Shown here one piece after another: positions 6,781 through 58,758 of a stretch of DNA of 64,000 nt. Both the position numbers and the translations under genes were made by a program. This stretch comes from an uncultured Candidatus Saccharibacteria bacterium (GTDB lineage Bacteria > Patescibacteriota > CALEFQ01 > G965231055). The DNA is taken from contig OZ246411.1 in the NCBI GenBank assembly GCA_965231055.1, positions 116,711-180,710 of the forward strand, written 5' to 3'. Numbering within the stretch: the first letter of the stretch is position 1; every line of letters starts with the position of its first letter. The notes under the pieces are model-generated. The model was not told the origin of the DNA. It worked only from the letters and a program-made list of their open reading frames with translations, and made no database searches.

Positions 6781-7179
6781 ATGAAAGGATTCAATGCGAA
6801 CATCGAAAAAGAAACTTTGGAAAACACCAATTTTCGCAAGGTTCTCTATACTGGCAAGCATAGCCAGCTAGTTCTTATGTCTCTTAAACCAAAGGAGGAA
6901 ATCGGAATGGAGATTCACAAAGAAAATGATCAATTTTTCCGATTTGAGAAAGGCCAAGGCAAATGCATCATAGATGGCAATGAGTACAGCGTAGAAGATG
7001 GCTCTGCGATAGTAGTTCCAGCAGGAGCTGAGCACAACATCATCAACGTCTCTGAAACCGAGGATCTCAAGCTTTACACCATCTACTCCCCCGCCCACCA
7101 CAAAGACGGTATCGTGAGAACTACAAAAGAAGAAGCCGAAGCCAATGACGAGGAGTTTGATGGAAAAACCACAGAATAA
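6781..7179 (+). CDS. Cupin-domain protein
   Basis: 132 aa. Cupin motif 2 PxGxxHxxxN is present (VVPAGAEHNIIN). It is too short and lacks HxH for a confident acireductone dioxygenase call. Confidence 0.65.
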   Translation: MKGFNANIEKETLENTNFRKVLYTGKHSQLVLMSLKPKEEIGMEIHKENDQFFRFEKGQGKCIIDGNEYSVEDGSAIVVPAGAEHNIINVSETEDLKLYTIYSPAHHKDGIVRTTKEEAEANDEEFDGKTTE

Positions 7180-7184
7180 AAAAA

Positions 7185-7360
7185 GGGACCACCAGCATAG
7201 ATCCCATTGATTCTCACGGTAATGCAAAAGCATTTTTACCCATGTGCGGGCGGTGTGTACAAGACCGAGAGGTCTTATAAAGAGATCAAAAGATCTCACT
7301 TCCGTTCGCTCGCCGCTACTTGGTCCCCGCAATACTGGTGGTGGTAATGAGCTTTTTTTG
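7185..7360 (+). ncRNA. Structured element (candidate ncRNA or 3'UTR structure). It carries reverse complements of universal 16S and 23S rRNA motifs and ends in an intrinsic terminator.
   Basis: Outer stem ccaccag/ctggtgg with T-run at 7353-7359. Internal hairpins AAGACC-gaga-GGTCTT and GAGATC-aaaa-GATCTC. 7239..7266 is the rc of 16S GGYCTTGTACACACCGCCCG.CA..TGGG. 7302..7320 is the rc of 23S AGTAGCGGCGAGCGAACGG. Confidence 0.45.
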
Positions 7361-7441
7361 ACAGTTTTACCCTTCTGCCAAGCTGTTTCAAATATATCAC
7401 GCTTTTGGCAGATTACAAGCCCATAGCTTATCGTAAATAAA

Positions 7442-7470
7442 AGACCGCGCCATTTCTGGTGCGGTTTTTT
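7442..7470 (+). terminator. Rho-independent terminator (second, downstream of the cupin gene/structured element)
   Basis: accgcgcca-tttc-tggtgcggt stem followed by TTTTTT. Confidence 0.6.
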
Positions 7471-7554
7471 GAAGTTAATGTGTGTGAAACAATTTCGTAG
7501 ACGAAATAAATATTATTTCATCTCAATGAAAGAGTCTTGGAATTTAAATATCCA

Positions 7555-7947
7555 TTACAAAATGGATATATTTATTCCGCCATTTTCTTTTATGAAAACT
7601 ATACACGAATTCGGTGTTTCCAAAATATCCTTTGGAGTGTCACCAGATTTAGCAAATAGCTCATTGCCATGTTCACATGCAATAGTTTCAAGAATAGGCT
7701 CTTCAATAGATTCTTCTTGTCTCGAAGGTTTAGCATCAAAAAGCTCTCTCAAATCAGAAACGGGCTCAATGATTTTTTTGACATCGCTAGGTGTAGAGCT
7801 GGGAGAATCATTGATTGGGGGTTTTGTATCAGAACCTCCTTTTGTGAATCTAACCGACAATTCGCTTCCCTGCGAACCACAAACATCAAACTTTTTTATA
7901 TCAGTCACTTTTTTGTCCTCCAGAAATCCTAATGAACGGTTAAACAA
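7555..7947 (-). CDS. Hypothetical protein (130 aa), probably co-transcribed downstream of the MtnA-like gene
   Basis: Hydrophilic, non-repetitive sequence 25 nt downstream of the 7972..9006 gene on the same strand. The overlapping + strand ORFs are Ser/Leu-rich, typical of antisense frames. Confidence 0.4.
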   Translation of the reverse strand: MFNRSLGFLEDKKVTDIKKFDVCGSQGSELSVRFTKGGSDTKPPINDSPSSTPSDVKKIIEPVSDLRELFDAKPSRQEESIEEPILETIACEHGNELFAKSGDTPKDILETPNSCIVFIKENGGINISIL

Positions 7948-7971
7948 ATAATTGTATTTGAATACAAAATA

Positions 7972-9006
7972 CTATATTAAATTATTAGAATCAAGTACTC
8001 CGTTTTCTGTAATAATTTTGGTGATATATTTGGCGGGAGTTACATCGAAGGCGGGATTCATAATCTCAAATGTTTTATCAAATTGATTTGAGTCCAAACA
8101 TCTCCAAAAATCTTCATCAGGTCTATTTTCTATGATTATCTCATCACCGCTTTCAATTTTTCTATCTATGGTTGCATCCACGGCACAAACATAAAAAGGA
8201 ATTTTGTTTTCATGAGCCAAAACCGCCAAAGGATATGTGCCGATTTTGTTTGCCGTATCTCCGTTTTTGGCAATCCTGTCTGCCCCTACAAATATCGCAG
8301 AAATTTTTCCAGATCTTAGTAGTGATCCAGCAACACTGTCTGAAATAACTTGGCATCCGATCCCCACTCGCTTCATCTCCCAAGCAGTAAGTTTCATTCC
8401 TTGAAATTGAGGTCTTGTTTCATCTGCAATCACATCAAATTTTTTACCTCCGGTAAATGCTGAAAACATAGGCGCAGTTGCTGTGCCATACCAAACACTG
8501 GATAGAGAGCCCGCGTTGCAATGAGTGAGGATTGTGGAACCCTCTTTGATCAGCTCTTTCCCATACTCGCCTATTTTCAGATTGTTCTGTACTTCTTGTT
8601 CCAAAATATTTCTAGCCCCTTCTAATAAGACTTTTTTTAAGTCCTTTTCGCTGGAATTTTCTGCAATTTCAAGCATTTTATCCACTCCCCAAGCCAGATT
8701 TACGGCAGTGGGCCTAGTTTTGTTTATCAAAAGTTCTTTGGCTTTTTTTAGATTTTCCAAAATTTCCTCTCTCGCATCAGAAGAATTTAGAGCTGACAAA
8801 TACATTCCTCCAATTCCAGTAGCTCCTATCGCCTGAGCACCTCGCACTTGCATAGTTTTTATTGCTTTTGCCGAATCTTCGAGTGTCAGAAGATCCAAAA
8901 ACTTAAGTTCCCGGGGTAACAATAGTTGATCAATAATCCTCACTTTGTCAGGAAAAATTTCTACAGTTTGAGGTAATTTAGATTTTAATTCGCTTATATC
9001 TTTCAT
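7972..9006 (-). CDS. mtnA: S-methyl-5-thioribose-1-phosphate isomerase / eIF-2B-related aldose-ketose isomerase (MtnA/E2b2 family)
   Basis: 344 aa. The GAQAIGATGIGG, CNAGSLS..GTA and VGADRIAKNGDTANKIGTY motifs are typical of the MtnA/eIF2B-alpha-like family. Confidence 0.8.
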   Translation of the reverse strand: MKDISELKSKLPQTVEIFPDKVRIIDQLLLPRELKFLDLLTLEDSAKAIKTMQVRGAQAIGATGIGGMYLSALNSSDAREEILENLKKAKELLINKTRPTAVNLAWGVDKMLEIAENSSEKDLKKVLLEGARNILEQEVQNNLKIGEYGKELIKEGSTILTHCNAGSLSSVWYGTATAPMFSAFTGGKKFDVIADETRPQFQGMKLTAWEMKRVGIGCQVISDSVAGSLLRSGKISAIFVGADRIAKNGDTANKIGTYPLAVLAHENKIPFYVCAVDATIDRKIESGDEIIIENRPDEDFWRCLDSNQFDKTFEIMNPAFDVTPAKYITKIITENGVLDSNNLI

Positions 9007-9559
9007 ATAATTTATTCATTTTTTGAAATGCATTTTCAAAGGTTTTTCCTGCGACAAAAAATCCATGATTTTTGATGAGAACAAACTCATTCGTGCCTAT
9101 GTTTTGAGAAACTTGCTTGGCAAGCTCGATAGTTCCATATGGTTGCTCTTCCAAAAGACACTGGTCATTAGCTAGCTCCAAATATTTATTGAATGCTGGG
9201 AGGTGACCATGAAAAATAAAATTGTATTCTGGATGGGCTCTATAAATCATGAAATGAGATCTGCTTTCCGAGCTGGGATTTCCGCTTCCTTGAAAAGAGA
9301 CACTATCACCCTCCACAGAAGTAACTTTGGCAAAATCAGATGAAGTTAATTTTTCTATGAGTATTCCAGTTTTTTTAATAACAAATCCGTTTTCAACTCT
9401 TCCGCTAAAATTTCCTCCGTTAAGTTCTATGAATCCTTTTTCTTTGTAATAGTCTCTTAATATTAGAAGTTTTTTTATGGTTTGGCTTTCGAAATCATTG
9501 GGATACCAATCCCCCTTATTTACCGCGTTGAATTTTATTCCCGAATAAACCTCACCCAT
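8978..9559 (-). CDS. Class II aldolase/adducin-family protein (MtnB-like dehydratase or 5-deoxyribulose-1-P aldolase)
   Basis: 193 aa. SSESRSHFMIYRAHPEYNFIFHGH matches the class II aldolase metal-binding region. It overlaps the isomerase gene by 29 nt, consistent with an operon. Confidence 0.75.
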   Translation of the reverse strand: MGEVYSGIKFNAVNKGDWYPNDFESQTIKKLLILRDYYKEKGFIELNGGNFSGRVENGFVIKKTGILIEKLTSSDFAKVTSVEGDSVSFQGSGNPSSESRSHFMIYRAHPEYNFIFHGHLPAFNKYLELANDQCLLEEQPYGTIELAKQVSQNIGTNEFVLIKNHGFFVAGKTFENAFQKMNKLYERYKRIKI

Positions 9560-9562
9560 GGA

Positions 9563-10303
9563 TTATTTGATTAGTGATTCTAAAGCGATAATAGCAGCTT
9601 CTGATTCCTTGGAAACCAATTCACCTTTCTTGGCAATTGCTTGATTGGCATATTTCAAGATTCCTTCTTGAACATTTTTTTCTCCCGAATCATTTACAAC
9701 TAGAAAGATGCATCCTGATTTTATATTTCTCAGCTGCGAAACTAGTACAATCGTTGAGCCTTCCATCTCTTGCGCTATGGCGTTCATCTGACCGAATTTT
9801 GCTTTGAGATTGTTTAGGTTTGGATTGTATAGCCAGTCCACTGAAACTGTAGTGCCTATGTGAAAATCTGACTTACTCTCTTCTGCCGATAGTTTGAGAT
9901 TTTTGAGAATCTCAGGATCAACTATGGCAGGCGTTTTTGATGAAATATATTCGGTAGGCACTCCGTCTCCTCTAATAATTTTATCGGGTATCACCACATC
10001 GCCTATTTTTATATTTGGACTAATGCTTCCGCAAGAACCAACTCTGATAATAGTTTTGACTCCTATATTGGCCATCTCTTCAACCGCTATAGCAGATGAA
10101 GGCCCACCTATTCCAGTTGAAACTATTGCTATTTCTTCGCCCTTGTATGATCCTTTGTAGCTCGTATATTCTCTGTTTTGAGCTACTTTTTGGGGATTTT
10201 CCAAATGATTTATGGCAATCCTCTCTACCCTTGCAGGATCTCCCACTACAATAGCTTTTGGGGCTAAATCGCCATTATCACACAATATATGGGGCTGTTT
10301 CAT
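9563..10303 (-). CDS. Purine nucleoside / 5'-methylthioadenosine phosphorylase (PNP/UDP family 1, DeoD-like)
   Basis: 246 aa with VVGDPARVERIA, VSTGIGGPSSAIAVEEM, IIRVGSCGS and EMEGSTIV motifs, the hexameric nucleoside phosphorylase family. Confidence 0.8.
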   Translation of the reverse strand: MKQPHILCDNGDLAPKAIVVGDPARVERIAINHLENPQKVAQNREYTSYKGSYKGEEIAIVSTGIGGPSSAIAVEEMANIGVKTIIRVGSCGSISPNIKIGDVVIPDKIIRGDGVPTEYISSKTPAIVDPEILKNLKLSAEESKSDFHIGTTVSVDWLYNPNLNNLKAKFGQMNAIAQEMEGSTIVLVSQLRNIKSGCIFLVVNDSGEKNVQEGILKYANQAIAKKGELVSKESEAAIIALESLIK

Positions 10304-50710: not shown

Positions 50711-51085
50711 ATGAAAAGAGTAATAAAAAGCTTCAAAGATCTTTTGGTTTGGCAAAAGTCTATTGAGTTAATAAAAACAACATACTCAATAGTCAATAAT
50801 TTCCCAAAACACGAGCTTTATTGCTTGTCTGCACAAATAAGACGAAGTGCAATTTCAATAGCTTCAAATATCGCGGAGGGAAGAAACAGAAGTACTAGAA
50901 AAGACTTTAGACAGTTTCTATTCATTGCTCTGGGATCTGGAGCCGAACTTGAAACACAAATTATAATAGCAAGAGAATTAGATTACATAGAAGAAGAGGA
51001 ATTTAATTCATTTATGTTTTCACTCACTGAGGTAATGAAAATGATAAATGGCTTGATATCAAAATTAAACATCCCTAGCGCATAG
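50711..51085 (+). CDS. Four-helix-bundle protein (23S rRNA intervening-sequence protein family)
   Basis: 124 aa. DLLVWQKSIEL...RSAISIASNIAEG...GSGAELETQI matches the IVS-protein family. Flanked by inverted family-B repeats. Confidence 0.8.
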   Translation: MKRVIKSFKDLLVWQKSIELIKTTYSIVNNFPKHELYCLSAQIRRSAISIASNIAEGRNRSTRKDFRQFLFIALGSGAELETQIIIARELDYIEEEEFNSFMFSLTEVMKMINGLISKLNIPSA

Positions 51086-51504: not shown

Positions 51505-54500
51505 CTATTGTATGAGGAAATAATTGAATCCTACATCATCCCCCACTGCTGTATCAAACTTGATAATAAATCCATTTGGAGAATCTTTTTCTATCCAGTA
51601 TCTAGTTGCTGGAGCATAATCATTTTCAAATGTCACAACAACTTTTGTAGTGTCAATTACTGAAAGATTTTCTACTGCAAACTCATCCGATCCTTTTTTA
51701 ACTATTCCAGATCCAGCCGAGCCATTTGGTTTTTCGTATATTTTAAGCTCTTCAGTAGAAATACTTTTTACAAATAGATTTCCGTTCTCATCTATTGACC
51801 ATTTGTTGCTCGCACCAACAATTGATCCTGTGGTGATCATGCCTGAAACAGAGAAATCACCATCTATTGCATTTGCATTTTGATCAATTCCGAGTTTGCT
51901 TTCCACATTTTCAATTCTTGAAATCATATCACCCAGAGAAGTAGTTTGAGCTTTATCTATTTCCAATAAATACACGGGTAATTTACTATAATCAACTGCA
52001 ACCGCATCTCCGTTTGAATTGTAAGAAATCAAATTTGTAAGTCCCAAAGACTCTAACTGACCCACTAAGTAGCCTATACTCTTTCTGCCCGAGTTATTTT
52101 CAAAAAGTTTTGGATCTAGTGAAAATATCTTATTCCAATCGTCACTAAAATCTCCAGACAACTCGCCAATACCAGAGTACACAGCAAGAGAGTTCTCTAT
52201 GCCGGAGATTCTATTTATCAAATCAGAAATATCATTGGAGAACGAAGTGTGTTGAGTTTTGTTTTTCGCTAAAGCGCTGTTAATCGAAACAATATCTCCC
52301 TCGCTATCATCCATTCTGTTATCGATATTTGAGATAAGCTGTCCATTTTTATCTATCATAACTTGTTGATCCTGCATGGCAAGAGTCAAAACTGGAATCA
52401 ATAGATCCTTCGCTACAGCCAAATATCCATCATTTCCTTCACTCACCATTTCTGGGAAAACTACTTGAGCTTCTTGAGCTACGAAACCATAGATAGTTGG
52501 ACCATCAGGATCCTGTTTTCTATTATATTGCCTTACCGTCAAAGCGTTTATAATACCTAAAGCATCAATATCGGCATCAGCAATATTGGTTTTCTTTCTA
52601 CTGTCAGAAGCATCAGCTAAAGAGAATGTTCCTCCGTTATTCTGAATATAACCAACATTGGTTCCATCACCATCATATGCATTTATGTAATAAGTGGTTC
52701 CGGTGCCATCATCTGCTCCTGCCTGTATCCTGATTCCATATCTATTTGCGTTATTTCCGTCGTTGAAAAAGTTAGCAACATAACCAGATGCTGAGTCTGT
52801 TTGCACATCCAAAGGATAACCAGCTGTTCCACTTCCAGAAGGAGCGATTAAAACTTGCCCGTCACCCTCCACAACCATTCTTCTCGTGCCATTTGTAAGA
52901 AAACTGATTGGGTAAGCACCTTGCTGATCCAACAGAAATCCACCACTATTTGTATTTTCTCCGTAAATATAACCTGCATCAGCATACAAACCAGCCATTG
53001 CCTGACTTGCAGCACCAATTTCTAACCAAGTACTTTGACCAGAAAGACCAACATCAGCCGCCGCGAGCGCGCCGGCATTTTGATTTCCGACGACAATACC
53101 TGCCGCAGCATTAGTATCATGATAAACATCAAGTTTTCTACCCGGATCAGAAGTTCCTATGCCCACATTTCCGGTTGGATTGAAGTAAACATCGTCTGCA
53201 GCGGTGATGAGCAAATCCTCTGAAGCATCAGAATTAGCTGAAATTCTTGTACTAGAAGTATCAAACTGAATATAGTCAGATGCAGGAAATATGAGATTTC
53301 CATTGGTATCAAAATAGTTTCCAGTATCTCCCATATAGGTTGTAGCTGTAAGATATGCGTTACCACCCGAATACAATGGATAACTAGCATTTGGATCAAT
53401 TCCTATGCCCACATATCTAAAATCTCCATCACCTGCGTTTGTTACTCTATAAGTAGTACCACCCAAATTCAAAGTTCCATCAGTATCAAAATACACTGAA
53501 GTCGTGCCAAGATATGTAATATTTTCCAAATAAACATTTCCACCATTTACATCAAGTCCGTAATTTCCATAAGTACCACCGATATAAACACCATAATCAG
53601 CTGTACCGCCTATATTCAAAGCCGTTTCTGTGGCATTTGCATGAGCTGATGCAATCTGAATATCAACACCATATAAATTATTTGATGCACCGCTATGAAC
53701 CGCATTGGTTATTGATACTGCTAGGCCCCTTTGAGTATCACTACCATTCATGGCGCCAGCAGTATATCCCATATAAATACCGTCAGAGCTGCTTCCTGCT
53801 GGACCAGTCGCTGTCACATTCACAGCTTTGGACGATGCCAACTGCGTACCAGCAACAACTGCAAGTGGAGTGGTTCCACCTGTTATGTATATACCGTAAT
53901 CAACATCAGCAAAAGCTGAGTTTATATAAGCTCCATAATCAGTTCCAGTTCCATTTTGAGTTTCTATATATGCTCCATAGTTCGATCTGGCTCCCAGTGA
54001 TTTTGCATACAAACCATAATTTGTTCTGCCGAGAGTGCCAGTAACATTCGTAGCGATTGCATCAGCATAAACAGCAACTGTGTTTAGATCCTGATACACC
54101 GCCGAATCGCTAGGGCTATAAACTGCTCCATACATACCCACGAGCGTAGTATCCCTAATCACTGCGGTATCCCAAGCATCAACCGCAAAATATCCACCCA
54201 TCAGCGAAAAAGTTCCGGGGCCAGTTCCCATATCTATAATGGAATCTTCTTCTATGCTAACAAGTCCTTCTACTGCCAATATATAATTATCTTCTGAGTC
54301 AGAAATATTTGATTTAACAACGTTTTGTCCGGAAACACCTATGCTTTTTACTTCTATTCTATGAGCCTCATTTGTGTTTACACGACCCTGAACTCCAGCA
54401 TTATATCCCGTAGATGCATCTTGAATTCTACCATCAACACCAGCAACATAAAGATCGTCAGATTTGGGATCTACATAACCTTGCAATCCGTGTGACCATT

Positions 54501-57500
54501 CAGAAACCGTACTGGCTCCACTCCTATAAACTTCCGAAGCAAAACCCAAAGAATTGGCGCTACCTGTTGATGTCATCACGATTCGCATAGCTGTTGTCCA
54601 ATCTTCCCCCACCCCTGCATTTGCGGTATTTGTTTGTTGCAGAAAAATTGATGCATCCCTTAAAACATCCGTAGAGTCCACAACATGCAGTTTATAAGAC
54701 GGGCTAGTTCCCACACCCAAATCATTTGCTACATAAACATTTCCACTATCAAAATACCCAGCCCAGTTAGTTGCTCCACCAGACGCAGTTGAATAAATAC
54801 CATAATGCGTAGCGGTTCCCGTACCGTTGGCCTGAAAGTATCCACCATAATTTGTGCCCGTTGCGGAATTTGCCCATCCCAATAAAGCACGCCCAGTGGA
54901 ACTAGAAGAGTAGGCATAAACTCCATAAGAAGAATTAGGATTAACACCATTCACAGCGAGATTAGTAGAAATCCTAGCTGCTCCGGTAATATCAAGCGGG
55001 TACGAAGGAGACATAGCAACTCCCAGTCTGCTGTTTGCCTGTATATAACCATCATTGACCTCAGCAACGCCAACCCCCAAACCACCATTTGCAACATAAG
55101 CGTCACCAGAAACATATAATGGATAGGTTGAGTTATGCGCAACATTAATACCAACATATCTAAAATCAGCATCTCTGTCTTTATAAATAGTTGCAACTTC
55201 TTGCATATATAAATCCCCCGAAATATTTACATTTCCACTAGCAAAGTATCCAGCCCAGTTAACCAAACCGCTATCTGCGGTCGCATATATACCATAATTA
55301 ACAGCAGCGCCTTCGGCAACCGATCTAGCATAAACGCCGTAACCCGAAGTCGCAGTTCCAGAACCAACATAGAAATATCCTCCATAGTTTGTACCACCGG
55401 CACCATCAGTAATACTGCTTTTCACACCATAATCATTTCCTGATCCGCCAGCGACTATTAAAAATTCTCCCGCAATATTTGAAACACCACCTCTAGCATA
55501 GCTAGCTATACCATAATTATTACTAGCTCCGGTATTTACACTAAAAGTACCGCCATAAACACTCGTATCAGTATGAGCTCCAAGAGTCACATTTGGAGAA
55601 ACATAAATACCGTCAACTCTAGCCGTGGCATCGTCCCCAACGGTTGTTGAATTGTATACATTTAATGTTCTTGTTTGACTATTGCCAGAATCTGCGACAG
55701 ATGAAATAAAACTAAATGAAGCTCCGTATTGAGTAGCAACTCCGAGGTTAGATGAAGTCGTTAAGAAATAATAACCAGACTCTCCATCCTCTTGAGACAA
55801 AGTAGCTTCTCCATGAATAGCTTGATTCGTGGTAACGCCTCCTTCAGCAGTCACATATAAACCAAAGTTTTCAGTAGCGGCTCCTGAAGCCACAAACCTA
55901 CCACCATAATTAGCATCCGTAGCATCAGCACTCTCTCCGTATACTCCGTAACCATCAGCACCGGCTGTTGTAACTATGCCATATATGCCGTAACCATTTG
56001 CAGATGCTGTAGACACTTCTCCATAAAAACCATAGCCATTGTCTGCTCGATCATTTGTTGCATAAGCTCCATAGGTATTGCCAGCTCCAGTTTTTGTTAT
56101 ATATATTCCATAACCATTATCTTCACCATTAAGAACATTTATACCCCTTGTAGTATCCACATCAATACCAACACCGAGCACCGTAGAAACATAAGCCTCA
56201 CCAGTTATATAGAAAGAATCATTGATATCAAAACGATCTTCCGCATTATTCCATGAAAGATATTTATCAGTAGGATTTGCTTCATTTGAAAAATACAAAT
56301 AACAATTTTCACTTCCGCCGCCAGCTCCACCGTCGTAGTTACAATATATATCTCCATTGCTCATCAGATCACCTGCATCAACCATGCCGGTGACTTTAAC
56401 ATCACCTTCAAACCAACCCGCCCAGACATTGTCAGCATCTTGCGCTTCTCCATAGATACCTATAGCCCAACCGCCATTAACTACGCTACCCCTCGCAATA
56501 CCATAAACACCAATATTTGAATCAGAAGATTCATCTGCAAAACCATATATACCTATATGACGCTCTTCCATAGAACCCAATCCCGTTGCTTCCCCTCTTA
56601 TTGCTATATTATCCCTAGCTGAATAACGAGAGGTATTCAAAACCCTAAGACCAGCATTGTAACTATCATTTATAATCGTGTCAGTATTGAAAAGAATCTC
56701 AGCTCCTATGGCTTGACCAGAGGGAACAGTAAGATCATCTAGCTGAAATCTATACGAGGGAACATCAGTACCGATTCCAAAATTTCCCCCCATAAAAACT
56801 CCTGAATAATTGTTGGTTGCATTGGCTACTTCAGAATATATTCCGTAGTTATTGTCAGAAGCACCATTCACCAAAATATTGATACCATTAATGGTACCGA
56901 GCGCACTATCCATTGCGATATTTATTCCGTATCCGTCTTCATAGGAATTCAAAATATTCAAACTATATCCTGCAATTGGAGTAGTGCCAATACTAAGTAG
57001 TCCCGAACTTATCGCAACATTGTCAGAGTAAGCTGGCGTGGGATAAATATAATCATCTCCAGGATTTGCATCTGTCCAAAGTCCAGCCCCTGCTGGTATA
57101 TCTGTGAGATACGCGACAGTTCCCGAAGCATCCTGAAAAGTGATAGTGTTTCCTGCTCCAGTTGGATCGGTAATAACAAAAGTACTAAAAACATTGTTAT
57201 CAGTAGTACCCTCAAAAACAAATGGAGATCCACCCAAAATTTGCGCACTTGCAAAATTGATATTTCCATCCGCAGTTATATTTCCTATTCCAGCTATGTC
57301 ACCAGTAGTAGAAATATCCCAGTCAGATGAATTGATATAAATAGCATCTCCTCCATCACCAAGAGTGAGTTGTCCCCCAGTCCCCACGGTAAGTGCTCCA
57401 TTCGCAGTAAGATTTGTACCTATTCCCGTGATACTATTTCCACCCATCGTAAGGTTAGCTCCGGTGATATCTATACCATTATTCGCATCTAGATTTCCTG

Positions 57501-58758
57501 TGAAAGTAACTTGTTGATTTGCTGATTGGTTTATTGCTCCAGCAGTAGTGATTGAGAAGTTTCCATTCACGGTAAAACTAGCGCCTGTTATATCAAGACC
57601 GTTTGTAGCATCCACATTTCCAGAGAAAGTTACTTGTCCAACACCCGTTTGAGTTAGAGCCGAGTTGGCCTGAGCAAATGTCCATGTTCCTAAGGTGCCA
57701 TTGAAAACAAGTGAAGATCCAGAAATAGAAAATGAATCCGAATTTACATAAGCAATAGATCCCGTACTGCCATTTACTGAATACATGTTCAATACCGAAT
57801 TGGTTGTAGATCCATCGCCTATTCTCAAAGTGTTCTGATCTACATCTACAGACAAAGCTGAGGCAAGTGTGTCGCCCCCGATAGAAACATCATTGGCTAA
57901 TACTGTTGGGTGCAAAACTGTTCCTGTTATAGTCCACTGCCCACCCGAAGCGCCAGACAAAGAAATCAAAGCATCAACTATCCCCCTATCTCCTGCAGCA
58001 AATGCGGCGTTGAATGAAGCGGTATCTGCAGTTAATGAAAATGGTATAGCGGTAGTGATTCTACTATCACTAAATGTAATTCCGTCAGAATTATTGAAAT
58101 TAATACTATTAGCTGTATTTGATGTTATAGAGATATCGGTTCCAGAAATAGAAACATTGTCTCCACCATCACCCAAAATCACCTGCCCATTTGATCTCAA
58201 AATACCATCCACTCTCAAACTTGCCTGCATCACAATATCTTCGTCTGTGATAGCTCCTCTTTCAGCAACGAAATCCAAAGTTATTTCTGATTCCAAATAC
58301 CCACCTATTTTTTCAGAATTCAAACTATATACAGTTCCACCTATTTTGGCGCGTGGGGTCATCTCACTATCTGATCCCACCTTGATTCCTAGATAATAAA
58401 CCGAGTTAGAAAAATTTAAATTTATAGGATTGGTTTCTCCCAAATTTACATTGAAAATTCCATCATGCACATATACAGATCCGTGAGTCTCAGACCATAA
58501 TGCACCTCCACCATTTTCCGAACTATAGATATTGAAAACTATTTGATAATTTCCATCACTCACATTTTCTCCTGCAGGAGTCCTCAAAAGACCCTGAAAA
58601 TTAATCATATTATCATAGGCTTCGGCAGTTCTTATGTCGCTGTTTCCGAAATATCCCAACAAAGCAAAAATCAGCGCTATAGCTGACGCCACGAGAGCAA
58701 CCATATTAAGTATTTTTTTGATTTTTATTTTGCTCATTTTACAATAAAAGAGTGCCAA
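51505..58758 (-). CDS. Giant (2417 aa) membrane-anchored Gly/Thr/Ser/Asn-rich fibre-like surface protein with a peptidase-S74-like intramolecular chaperone domain
   Basis: N-terminal TM anchor. About 2000 aa of imperfect repeats with recurring aromatic motifs (NYGIYA, GYGVY, NWAGYF). Residues ~2051-2140 (nt ~52340..52608) match the S74 domain: SDSRKKTNI...GFVAQEAQVVFPEMV...GYLAVAKDLLIPVLTLAMQ. About 280 aa follow it, including a second ...VDYSKLPVYLLEIDKA... segment. Confidence 0.8.
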   Translation of the reverse strand: MALFYCKMSKIKIKKILNMVALVASAIALIFALLGYFGNSDIRTAEAYDNMINFQGLLRTPAGENVSDGNYQIVFNIYSSENGGGALWSETHGSVYVHDGIFNVNLGETNPINLNFSNSVYYLGIKVGSDSEMTPRAKIGGTVYSLNSEKIGGYLESEITLDFVAERGAITDEDIVMQASLRVDGILRSNGQVILGDGGDNVSISGTDISITSNTANSINFNNSDGITFSDSRITTAIPFSLTADTASFNAAFAAGDRGIVDALISLSGASGGQWTITGTVLHPTVLANDVSIGGDTLASALSVDVDQNTLRIGDGSTTNSVLNMYSVNGSTGSIAYVNSDSFSISGSSLVFNGTLGTWTFAQANSALTQTGVGQVTFSGNVDATNGLDITGASFTVNGNFSITTAGAINQSANQQVTFTGNLDANNGIDITGANLTMGGNSITGIGTNLTANGALTVGTGGQLTLGDGGDAIYINSSDWDISTTGDIAGIGNITADGNINFASAQILGGSPFVFEGTTDNNVFSTFVITDPTGAGNTITFQDASGTVAYLTDIPAGAGLWTDANPGDDYIYPTPAYSDNVAISSGLLSIGTTPIAGYSLNILNSYEDGYGINIAMDSALGTINGINILVNGASDNNYGIYSEVANATNNYSGVFMGGNFGIGTDVPSYRFQLDDLTVPSGQAIGAEILFNTDTIINDSYNAGLRVLNTSRYSARDNIAIRGEATGLGSMEERHIGIYGFADESSDSNIGVYGIARGSVVNGGWAIGIYGEAQDADNVWAGWFEGDVKVTGMVDAGDLMSNGDIYCNYDGGAGGGSENCYLYFSNEANPTDKYLSWNNAEDRFDINDSFYITGEAYVSTVLGVGIDVDTTRGINVLNGEDNGYGIYITKTGAGNTYGAYATNDRADNGYGFYGEVSTASANGYGIYGIVTTAGADGYGVYGESADATDANYGGRFVASGAATENFGLYVTAEGGVTTNQAIHGEATLSQEDGESGYYFLTTSSNLGVATQYGASFSFISSVADSGNSQTRTLNVYNSTTVGDDATARVDGIYVSPNVTLGAHTDTSVYGGTFSVNTGASNNYGIASYARGGVSNIAGEFLIVAGGSGNDYGVKSSITDGAGGTNYGGYFYVGSGTATSGYGVYARSVAEGAAVNYGIYATADSGLVNWAGYFASGNVNISGDLYMQEVATIYKDRDADFRYVGINVAHNSTYPLYVSGDAYVANGGLGVGVAEVNDGYIQANSRLGVAMSPSYPLDITGAARISTNLAVNGVNPNSSYGVYAYSSSSTGRALLGWANSATGTNYGGYFQANGTGTATHYGIYSTASGGATNWAGYFDSGNVYVANDLGVGTSPSYKLHVVDSTDVLRDASIFLQQTNTANAGVGEDWTTAMRIVMTSTGSANSLGFASEVYRSGASTVSEWSHGLQGYVDPKSDDLYVAGVDGRIQDASTGYNAGVQGRVNTNEAHRIEVKSIGVSGQNVVKSNISDSEDNYILAVEGLVSIEEDSIIDMGTGPGTFSLMGGYFAVDAWDTAVIRDTTLVGMYGAVYSPSDSAVYQDLNTVAVYADAIATNVTGTLGRTNYGLYAKSLGARSNYGAYIETQNGTGTDYGAYINSAFADVDYGIYITGGTTPLAVVAGTQLASSKAVNVTATGPAGSSSDGIYMGYTAGAMNGSDTQRGLAVSITNAVHSGASNNLYGVDIQIASAHANATETALNIGGTADYGVYIGGTYGNYGLDVNGGNVYLENITYLGTTSVYFDTDGTLNLGGTTYRVTNAGDGDFRYVGIGIDPNASYPLYSGGNAYLTATTYMGDTGNYFDTNGNLIFPASDYIQFDTSSTRISANSDASEDLLITAADDVYFNPTGNVGIGTSDPGRKLDVYHDTNAAAGIVVGNQNAGALAAADVGLSGQSTWLEIGAASQAMAGLYADAGYIYGENTNSGGFLLDQQGAYPISFLTNGTRRMVVEGDGQVLIAPSGSGTAGYPLDVQTDSASGYVANFFNDGNNANRYGIRIQAGADDGTGTTYYINAYDGDGTNVGYIQNNGGTFSLADASDSRKKTNIADADIDALGIINALTVRQYNRKQDPDGPTIYGFVAQEAQVVFPEMVSEGNDGYLAVAKDLLIPVLTLAMQDQQVMIDKNGQLISNIDNRMDDSEGDIVSINSALAKNKTQHTSFSNDISDLINRISGIENSLAVYSGIGELSGDFSDDWNKIFSLDPKLFENNSGRKSIGYLVGQLESLGLTNLISYNSNGDAVAVDYSKLPVYLLEIDKAQTTSLGDMISRIENVESKLGIDQNANAIDGDFSVSGMITTGSIVGASNKWSIDENGNLFVKSISTEELKIYEKPNGSAGSGIVKKGSDEFAVENLSVIDTTKVVVTFENDYAPATRYWIEKDSPNGFIIKFDTAVGDDVGFNYFLIQ

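Follow-up and report, generated by a model that had tools for sequence, protein, structure and literature searches.

Contig OZ246411.1 of an uncultured Candidatus Saccharibacteria bacterium contains, within the 64,000 nucleotide (nt) stretch analysed here (positions 116,711–180,710, forward strand; below, the window), a short intergenic element that carries copies of core segments of both 16S and 23S ribosomal RNA (rRNA) and lies immediately 3' of the stop codon (7177-7179) of a cupin gene. The element is under purifying selection with conserved pairing, and it combines frozen modules with fast-evolving hairpins that still pair, so that a neutral relic is ruled out. We propose, at a rough probability of 0.45, that it is a lineage-restricted and independently transcribed gene for a structured small RNA (sRNA) of ~200 nt, read on the minus strand from ~7384 to 7178 in the rRNA sense, whose product is likely an rRNA mimic. 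Judged from its sequence, it constitutes a new RNA family with a very narrow distribution and an unusual, rRNA-derived composition.

The rRNA-like element and its relatives

On the plus strand, an anti-16S block (CCCATGTGCGGGCGGTGTGTACAAGACC, 7239-7266) and an anti-23S block (CCGTTCGCTCGCCGCTACTT, 7302-7321) have between them two perfect hairpins, AAGACC-GAGA-GGTCTT at 7261-7276 and GAGATC-AAAA-GATCTC at 7282-7297; reading both strands bears out this part of the initial annotation, which had reported antisense 16S and 23S motifs separated by hairpins. The minus-strand readings of 7239-7266 and 7302-7321 are GGUCUUGUACACACCGCCCG-CACA-UGGG and AAGUAGCGGCGAGCGAACGG, in the order ...ACCACCACCAGUAUUGCGGGGACC-AAGUAGCGGCGAGCGAACGG-AAGU-GAGAUCUUUUGAUCUC-UUUAU-AAGACCUCUCGGUCUU-GUACACACCGCCCGCACAUGGG..., and we refer to them as the 16S-like and 23S-like blocks. 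The 23S-like block had been placed at 23S positions 190-210 through a slip of numbering, and is identical to what we take to be nt 241-259 of Escherichia coli 23S rRNA, in the helix 13/14 region of domain I. The 16S-like block is the counterpart of E. coli 16S 1386-1416 and is shorter by four bases, in agreement with the deletion described earlier; relative to GGCCTTGTACACACCGCCCGTCACA, presumably E. coli 1386-1409, it has one mismatch and one gap, and it resumes at UGGG. Exact matches to rRNA extend over 19-20 nt in each block, and both blocks coincide with what we take to be widely used 16S and 23S PCR primer or probe regions. The window contains a single instance of the two-arm pattern, and 100 dinucleotide shuffles contain none, consistent with the earlier statement that it is not due to chance. 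Conserved parts of the element reach from the U tract at ~7178 to ~7384, beyond the limits of 7185-7360 first given to it, and include a further hairpin at 7360-7379.

The proteins of the window have their best matches in Patescibacteria (the Candidate Phyla Radiation, CPR), and in a local alignment with a bona fide CPR 23S gene (contig L057; 716 bits with the Rfam LSU model) the 23S-like block matches over CAAGTAGCGGCGAGCG..AACGGA with an identical core. The rRNA likeness extends slightly past the universal cores, as CC.AAGUAGCGGCGAGCGAA.CGGA on the 23S side and, on the 16S side, as GGUCUUGUACACACCGCCCG.CACA.UGGG with a short hairpin and GUGAGA(A/G)UC after it, which may be compared with GUGAAGUC of rRNA. 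Because the likeness goes beyond the universal cores, descent from rRNA fragments appears more likely than convergence, and both displayed blocks are almost certainly rRNA-derived.

Comparison with related genomes, as proposed in the initial annotation, reveals diverged homologues in L003 (ERR4067841), which is complete, and in L093 (ERZ27239174) and L092 (SRR15116522), which end at a contig edge; in addition, a Logan assembly of SRR10912415 has 100% identity to the window across 7150-7480. The element is single-copy in each of the four assemblies and lies downstream of the highly conserved cupin gene, which it directly adjoins in the window, L003 and L093, with one inserted gene between them in L092. 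The core of the element is 89-100% identical among these sequences, compared with 56-80% at synonymous sites. Third-codon positions of the window and L003 agree at 56% in mtnA, 77% in the aldolase gene, 74% in the PNP gene and 76% in the cupin gene; in the element, the P1/23S half (47/53 identical) and the 16S/3' half (82/88) stand apart from hairpins A and B (19/38) and the 5' leader (19/47). The 3' halves of the window and L093 are identical (88/88), with 73% identity at cupin third positions. A relic of a rearranged rRNA locus, or of one carrying an intervening sequence (IVS), had been considered, and it is not supported as an account of how the element stands today: the core far exceeds synonymous sites in conservation, stems are kept by compensatory or wobble changes, and there is no rRNA gene in the window. 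An origin of the element from rRNA fragments is plausible.

Predicted structure and strand

A covariance model built from the four copies (CM R1) matches the window at 7174-7395, and the features of the proposed RNA are given in Table 1. The manual helix model consists of P1 (11 bp), P2 (6 bp) and hairpins A, C and D, and 95.8% of its cells are paired, versus 25-44% when the partners are slid. P1 is 100% paired in the sequences that cover it, with U·G in the window and L092 and C-G in L003. Hairpin B is kept with a changed register and partner (AAGACC/GGUCUU in the window, ACAAGA/UCUUGU in L003 and GUAC/GUAC in L093), and in L003 the P0 stem is different and its loop the same (GAUAACG-GAAGGGCAAAGU-CGUUAUC). 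The 16S-like block of L092 has a C-to-U change at the equivalent of C1400. Hairpin C is possibly the truncated top of helix 44. Because the loops and bulges of hairpins C and D are invariant, the pattern suggests a constraint from protein or tertiary structure rather than simple antisense arms.

Table 1. Coordinates of the features of the proposed RNA and of its convergent neighbour in the window.
Feature	Position	Strand	Remarks
Proposed transcript, ~200 nt	7178..7384	-	Predicted start near 7384, running to U7; delimited by a promoter-like site at the start and an intrinsic terminator at the end
Promoter-like site: TTGTAA (7418-7413), 16 nt spacer, TGaTATATT (-10 at 7396-7391)	7391..7418	-	From consensus scan; consensus match only
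P0 hairpin, GGCAG-AAGGGUAAAA-CUGUC	7360..7379	-	Loop GAAGGG(Y)AAA conserved
P1 5' arm, ACCACCAGUAU (RNA sense)	7332..7342	-	Pairs with 7188-7198, 11 bp
P1 3' arm, AUGCUGGUGGU	7188..7198	-	Pairs with 7332-7342
P2 5' arm, UGCGGG	7326..7331	-	Partner is CCCGCA at 7245-7250; in L003, G·U in place of G-C
23S-like block, AAGUAGCGGCGAGCGAACGG	7302..7321	-	E. coli 23S 241-259; one G-to-A change in L003
Hairpin A, GAGAUC-UUUU-GAUCUC	7282..7297	-	Sequence-variable; AAUCGG-UACA-CCGAUU in L003; same stem with 8-nt loop in L093
Hairpin B, UAUAAGACC-UCUC-GGUCUUGUA	7258..7279	-	The 16S-like block begins with its 3' arm (helix-28 3' strand)
16S-like block, GGUCUUGUACACACCGCCCG-CACA-UGGG	7239..7266	-	E. coli 1386-1416 minus four bases; L003 has CCCGUACA
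Hairpin C, CAUGG-GUAAA-AAUGC-UUUU-GCAUU-A-CCGUG	7215..7244	-	Identical in all four except one internal-loop base
Hairpin D, AUC-AAUGG-GAU	7201..7211	-	A-U becomes G-C in L003, compensatory
Intrinsic terminator, GGGAUC-N9-GGUCCC then U7	7178..7205	-	Overlaps P1 3' arm and cupin stop codon
Cupin_2 gene	6781..7179	+	Convergent neighbour of the RNA; Pfam assignment

The strand-specific signals that we computed all favour the rRNA-sense strand. Outside hairpin A, which is misaligned, each non-Watson-Crick cell (7/7) reads as G·U in the minus-strand sense and as C·A in the plus-strand sense. The same asymmetry is present in P0 (GGCAG/CUGUC, where G·U on the minus strand is A·C on the plus strand), in the extended hairpin B with its minus-strand U·G, in the outer stem of hairpin C (minus-strand U·G, plus-strand C·A) and in the terminator stem. 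The RNAalifold consensus is -48.35 kcal/mol for the minus strand versus -38.65 for the plus strand, and single-sequence minimum free energies (minus/plus) are -63.1/-60.0 for the window and -66.1/-55.2 for L003. The terminator hairpin has a predicted free energy of -8.8 kcal/mol in the window and -12.3 kcal/mol in L003, where a U·G pair is replaced by C-G; its plus-strand mirror contains a C·A mismatch and has no U run after it. The U7 tract stays with the element in L092 despite a different neighbouring gene. At the aligned promoter position L003 has TTTTCA-17-TGcTATGCT, which is weaker and falls under the scan threshold. Because of the wobble pairs, the folding energies, the promoter-like site and the intrinsic terminator, we consider that the minus strand is probably the functional one. 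An sRNA transcribed from the plus strand, with arms that base-pair with rRNA, had been suggested initially; the sRNA part of this proposal is supported, but the signals favour the minus strand, which makes the plus strand and the antisense mode less likely.

Distribution, known systems and genomic neighbourhood

Strict and relaxed two-arm DNA patterns have no exact match in 185,579 GTDB species genomes, and the strict pattern has none in JGI metagenomes or in IMG/VR viral contigs; of the patterns scanned, the first two would miss the L003 variant and all would miss the L092 variant. Viral contigs likewise lack the hairpin-C block, and phage and plasmid records have no blastn match to the element. 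Neither nhmmer nor CM R1 finds the element at 80 JGI loci with cupin homologues or at eight further loci, the cupin relatives L091 and L094-L101 are without it, and among MtnA relatives at 63-64% identity the adjacency to the cupin is lost. Rfam yields no match, either with the whole window at gathering score or with 7000-8000 at E<=10, and only chance matches (RUF2, csRNA and others) lie far below threshold. A search of the literature on CPR non-coding RNAs, on rRNA mimics and on the sequencing runs concerned found nothing relevant. On these searches, the element is very rare and confined to a narrow clade of Patescibacteria.

The element occurs once in the 64 kb window and shows no repeats among all of the fetched loci of the kind expected of a miniature inverted-repeat transposable element or insertion sequence; its A7 and T7 flanks are inverted, not direct, and T7 is absent in L003. 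The single copy, together with absence from phage and plasmid records and (for the scanned patterns) from viral contigs, argues against a mobile repeat, and an IVS-like mobile element, as envisaged in the initial annotation, finds no support in the same results. The RYYYAAC / GTTRRRY core sites of integron attC are absent on both strands. With respect to retrons and diversity-generating retroelements, there is no reverse transcriptase (RT) domain in the unannotated open reading frames (ORFs) flanking the element or in several others at ~3.7-11.6 kb, where the remaining genes have ordinary metabolic domains. C/D-box guide RNAs find no counterpart either, as neither RUGAUGA nor CUGA occurs on either strand of 7170-7400.

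Among known RNAs, those closest in presumed action are the leaders of ribosomal protein operons and trans-acting mimics such as 6S and CsrB. The leaders, which mediate autogenous control, resemble the element in that a non-ribosomal RNA copies an rRNA surface for an rRNA-binding protein. These leaders are cis-acting 5' untranslated regions (UTRs) whose mimicry is mostly structural with little sequence identity, whereas the element is free-standing and convergent with the cupin gene, has its own predicted terminator, and contains 19-20-nt exact copies from the rRNAs of both subunits. It is not in the 5' UTR of a ribosomal protein gene on the same strand: the minus strand continues into the antisense of the cupin gene, and downstream on the plus strand there is nothing in the window and a class I methyltransferase gene in L003. 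6S RNA, a mimic of the open promoter, and CsrB/RsmZ, mimics of mRNA sites, share with our proposal the imitation of a natural ligand, a length of ~180-200 nt and a closing helix. In contrast to these, the element would imitate rRNA, matches neither 6S nor CsrB in Rfam, and has a predicted fold that is multi-branched rather than an irregular rod with a central bubble. Eukaryotic U3 and other small nucleolar RNAs (snoRNAs) that chaperone pre-rRNA offer a purely inferential comparison, in that they contain short stretches matching one strand of an rRNA helix; by analogy, the element could hold the helix-28 5' strand and the helix-44 3' strand in nascent rRNA. It differs from U3 in lacking C/D boxes and in having part of its 16S-like strand already engaged in hairpin B and P2, and we know of no bacterial counterpart of U3-type chaperone snoRNAs. 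Finally, fragmented and scrambled organellar rRNA genes and rRNA pseudogene fragments also consist of short rRNA-sense pieces away from an rRNA operon, but the element joins 23S and 16S in one proposed transcript, its decoding site is four bases short, and the small and large subunit rRNA models (RF00177 and RF02541) have no match in the window at gathering score or in 7000-8000 at E<=10; the same models do detect real rRNA in L057 and L097. The rRNA scan of the window at gathering score likewise shows no rRNA gene, and the window contains no tRNA gene.

The window is ordinary chromosome, with rpoB, rpoC, ftsK, uvrB and truB, and the element sits between the Cupin_2 gene (6781-7179, plus strand) and a variable region ending at mtnA (7972-9006, minus strand). 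The neighbouring ORFs of 130, 396 and 190 amino acids (aa) match no Pfam family, and those of 130 and 190 aa are not homologous. On inspection we reject a coding role, as neither a 9-codon ORF in hairpin C nor a 154-aa antisense ORF is conserved as protein. A 34-nt hairpin terminator, ATAAAAGACCGCGCCATTTCTGGTGCGGTTTT, with A and T runs on its two sides, is 100% identical between the window (7436-7469) and L003 (5948-5981), and could act in both directions; it follows the non-homologous 130-aa and 190-aa ORFs, and in L003 the methyltransferase gene separates it from the element. In L092, a SnoaL/DUF4440-like gene (coordinates 425-815, 124 aa) lies between the cupin gene and the element with AATAAAAA at both junctions, and these sequences suggest insertion or recombination at the A-rich stop-codon region. 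Beyond the variable region, a conserved minus-strand cluster (7972-10303) encodes a MtnA/IF-2B-family isomerase, a class II aldolase-like protein and a PNP_UDP_1 phosphorylase in overlapping reading frames, which we take to be a cluster for the salvage of nucleosides and ribose phosphate of the kind typical of CPR.

The 132-aa Cupin_2 protein shares 85-96% identity with thousands of proteins across many Patescibacteria lineages, with Gracilibacteria, Wolfebacteria and Parcubacteria among the names of its matches; the neighbouring MtnA has matches of <=64% past its closest relative. The cupin thus displays extraordinary conservation or frequent transfer, for a protein without an assigned role. 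In two other CPR lineages it lies near an rRNA gene in the same orientation, 0.9 kb upstream of a 16S gene in L097-L099 (L097 1462-2423) and 1.6 kb upstream of a 23S gene in L057 (1293-2900), a proximity that is about at chance level (roughly 1 in 85 expected). The idea, drawn from L057 and L097, that an rRNA operon once next to the cupin has collapsed is rejected on the grounds of order, orientation and conservation.

Two further genes are of note elsewhere in the window. A free-standing four-helix-bundle gene of the 23S_rRNA_IVP family (50711-51085, plus strand; Pfam 2.7e-38, with a weak bAvd-like match) directly follows truB; it was once linked to the element as an IVS-type gene, a link that we set aside given its free-standing position beside truB at 43 kb, and it appears unrelated. 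The ORFs flanking this Avd-like gene, as scanned, contain no RT domain. A minus-strand ORF of 2417 aa (51505-58758), whose sole Pfam match is Peptidase_S74 (endosialidase chaperone) near residue 2050, resembles a tail-fibre or large surface protein.

A putative rRNA mimic and competing explanations

As we picture it, the RNA would display the 23S loop region of nt 241-259 and the neck and decoding-centre strand of 16S rRNA (1386-1416), followed by a truncated helix-44-like hairpin, on a scaffold in which the closing helix P1 and the inner helix P2 are accompanied by four hairpins, two that evolve freely and two that do not vary, and by a 5' hairpin whose GAAGGG loop is conserved. It would thereby present naked rRNA surfaces to a factor that recognises them, and titrate or occupy that factor; candidates include an assembly or modification factor of the 30S neck or decoding region, a ribosomal protein, or an rRNA-directed nuclease. 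Alternatively, the targets may be the natural pairing partners in nascent rRNA, namely the helix-28 5' strand and the helix-44 3' strand. Because the RNA is rRNA-sense, it is unable to pair with the same stretches of rRNA, and a mimic is therefore preferred to an antisense guide; a mimic or decoy for an rRNA-recognising factor is most likely, and it is in this sense that we infer the binding target. A more specific proposal is that the clade makes a trans-acting RNA with the sense 16S neck/decoding strand and the 23S domain-I loop, either as a functional counterpart of U3-type snoRNAs that base-pairs with the partner strands of nascent rRNA and serves as their placeholder or chaperone, or as a decoy that soaks up a factor or toxin recognising conserved rRNA and so protects ribosomes; at this level of detail we regard it as unlikely. 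The element cannot be a working rRNA, because it matches no rRNA model, does not reproduce the A-site loop, and combines 16S and 23S pieces in one transcript.

Several observations weigh against an rRNA mimic encoded on the minus strand. There are four sequences in total, two of them complete (the window and L003), and all are closely related; with so few and such close sequences the covariation statistics are weak, and 42 of 500 shuffles reach the observed values. A number of helices are mutually exclusive, namely P1 with the terminator, and hairpin B with a pairing of the 23S and 16S blocks to each other; similarly, the GAAGGG loop of P0 is able to pair with the 3' CCCUUU, in competition with its role as a loop. 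The helices mimic 23S poorly, with the loop-closing 23S helix down to 2 bp, and the A-site internal loop is not reproduced, the 1406-1413 stretch being four bases short relative to E. coli. The C1400 equivalent (C-to-U in L092) and the 23S-block position that is changed in L003 (G-to-A) are both presumably near-universal in rRNA. No partner gene conserved beside the element was found. There is also a G·U-rich hairpin that forms on the plus strand only (GCCGCUACUUGGU...ACUGGUGGUGGU, designated Hx), which competes with P1 and fits 4/4 substitutions including one compensatory pair.

Hx is in line with the alternative that the plus strand is functional, as the 3' UTR of the cupin mRNA or as an operon spacer, with arms that pair with 16S 1386-1416 and 23S 241-259 as an antisense regulator or folding chaperone. 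Read-through on this strand is likely because the element is always downstream of genes on the cupin strand, the change in the anti-23S arm of L003 (C to U) still pairs with rRNA as U·G, and the plus-strand fold of the window has a z-score (-2.35) similar to that of the minus strand. However, the wobbles in P0, P1, P2, hairpins B and C and the terminator stem all become C·A, the L003 fold is weak (-55.2 kcal/mol, z -0.66), no conserved terminator follows the element (a T run is present in the window only), the L092 change (G to A) creates an A·C mismatch with C1400, and C/D-box motifs are absent; we therefore hold the plus strand to be quite an unlikely choice. The strand asymmetry, which is meaningless for duplex DNA, also tells against a feature at the DNA level, in which a recombination or insertion remnant joining rRNA fragments has become a hotspot for gene insertion with its inverted repeats acting as DNA structure. 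The adjoining gene content does vary, with the repeat-flanked SnoaL-like gene in L092 and the methyltransferase gene inserted on the other side of the element in L003, and the P1 arms look like 11-bp terminal inverted repeats; but the element is single-copy with no transposase or integrase nearby, attC core sites are absent, and hairpin C keeps its loops and bulges unchanged, and we judge this explanation improbable.

A non-functional rRNA-derived pseudogene fragment, common to the four genomes merely through close kinship, would account for the resemblance to rRNA beyond the universal core and for the very narrow distribution, and the proximity of the cupin to rRNA genes in two other CPR lineages, where a 16S or 23S gene lies downstream of it at 0.9-1.6 kb, might be seen in the same light. 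This explanation, which includes the generic rRNA-fragment pseudogene raised at the outset, is largely refuted by the 88/88 identity at 27% synonymous divergence, by the coexistence of frozen and hypervariable modules and by the compensatory changes; moreover, intergenic DNA is not equally conserved (19/47 in the leader), and the order of 23S then 16S in an orientation opposite to the cupin is unlike a collapsed operon. Its probability is very small. Smaller still, to the point of being negligible, is that of an assembly chimera or primer-derived artefact; although the blocks coincide with what we take to be common rRNA PCR primer sites, sequence variants with collinear flanks are present in four independent assemblies from different runs and assemblers, and the artefact is refuted.

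An rRNA-sense sRNA thus remains our preferred reading, and on this reading the element illustrates how rRNA fragments can be turned into new RNA genes by exaptation. At a practical level, exact matches to what we take to be 16S and 23S primer or probe regions exist outside any rRNA gene. Should the RNA prove to be expressed and to bind a partner related to the ribosome, we would know of no earlier free-standing bacterial sRNA that is built from sense copies of both 16S and 23S cores, and a chaperone or decoy role, if true, would put rRNA-derived modules to a use without precedent among bacterial sRNAs. Mimicry of rRNA would then extend from the cis-acting leaders of ribosomal protein operons to a trans-acting RNA. 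The ribosomes and rRNA genes of CPR bacteria are already known to be unusual, and the element would, if this reading is true, provide a handle on ribosome biogenesis or protection in these organisms.
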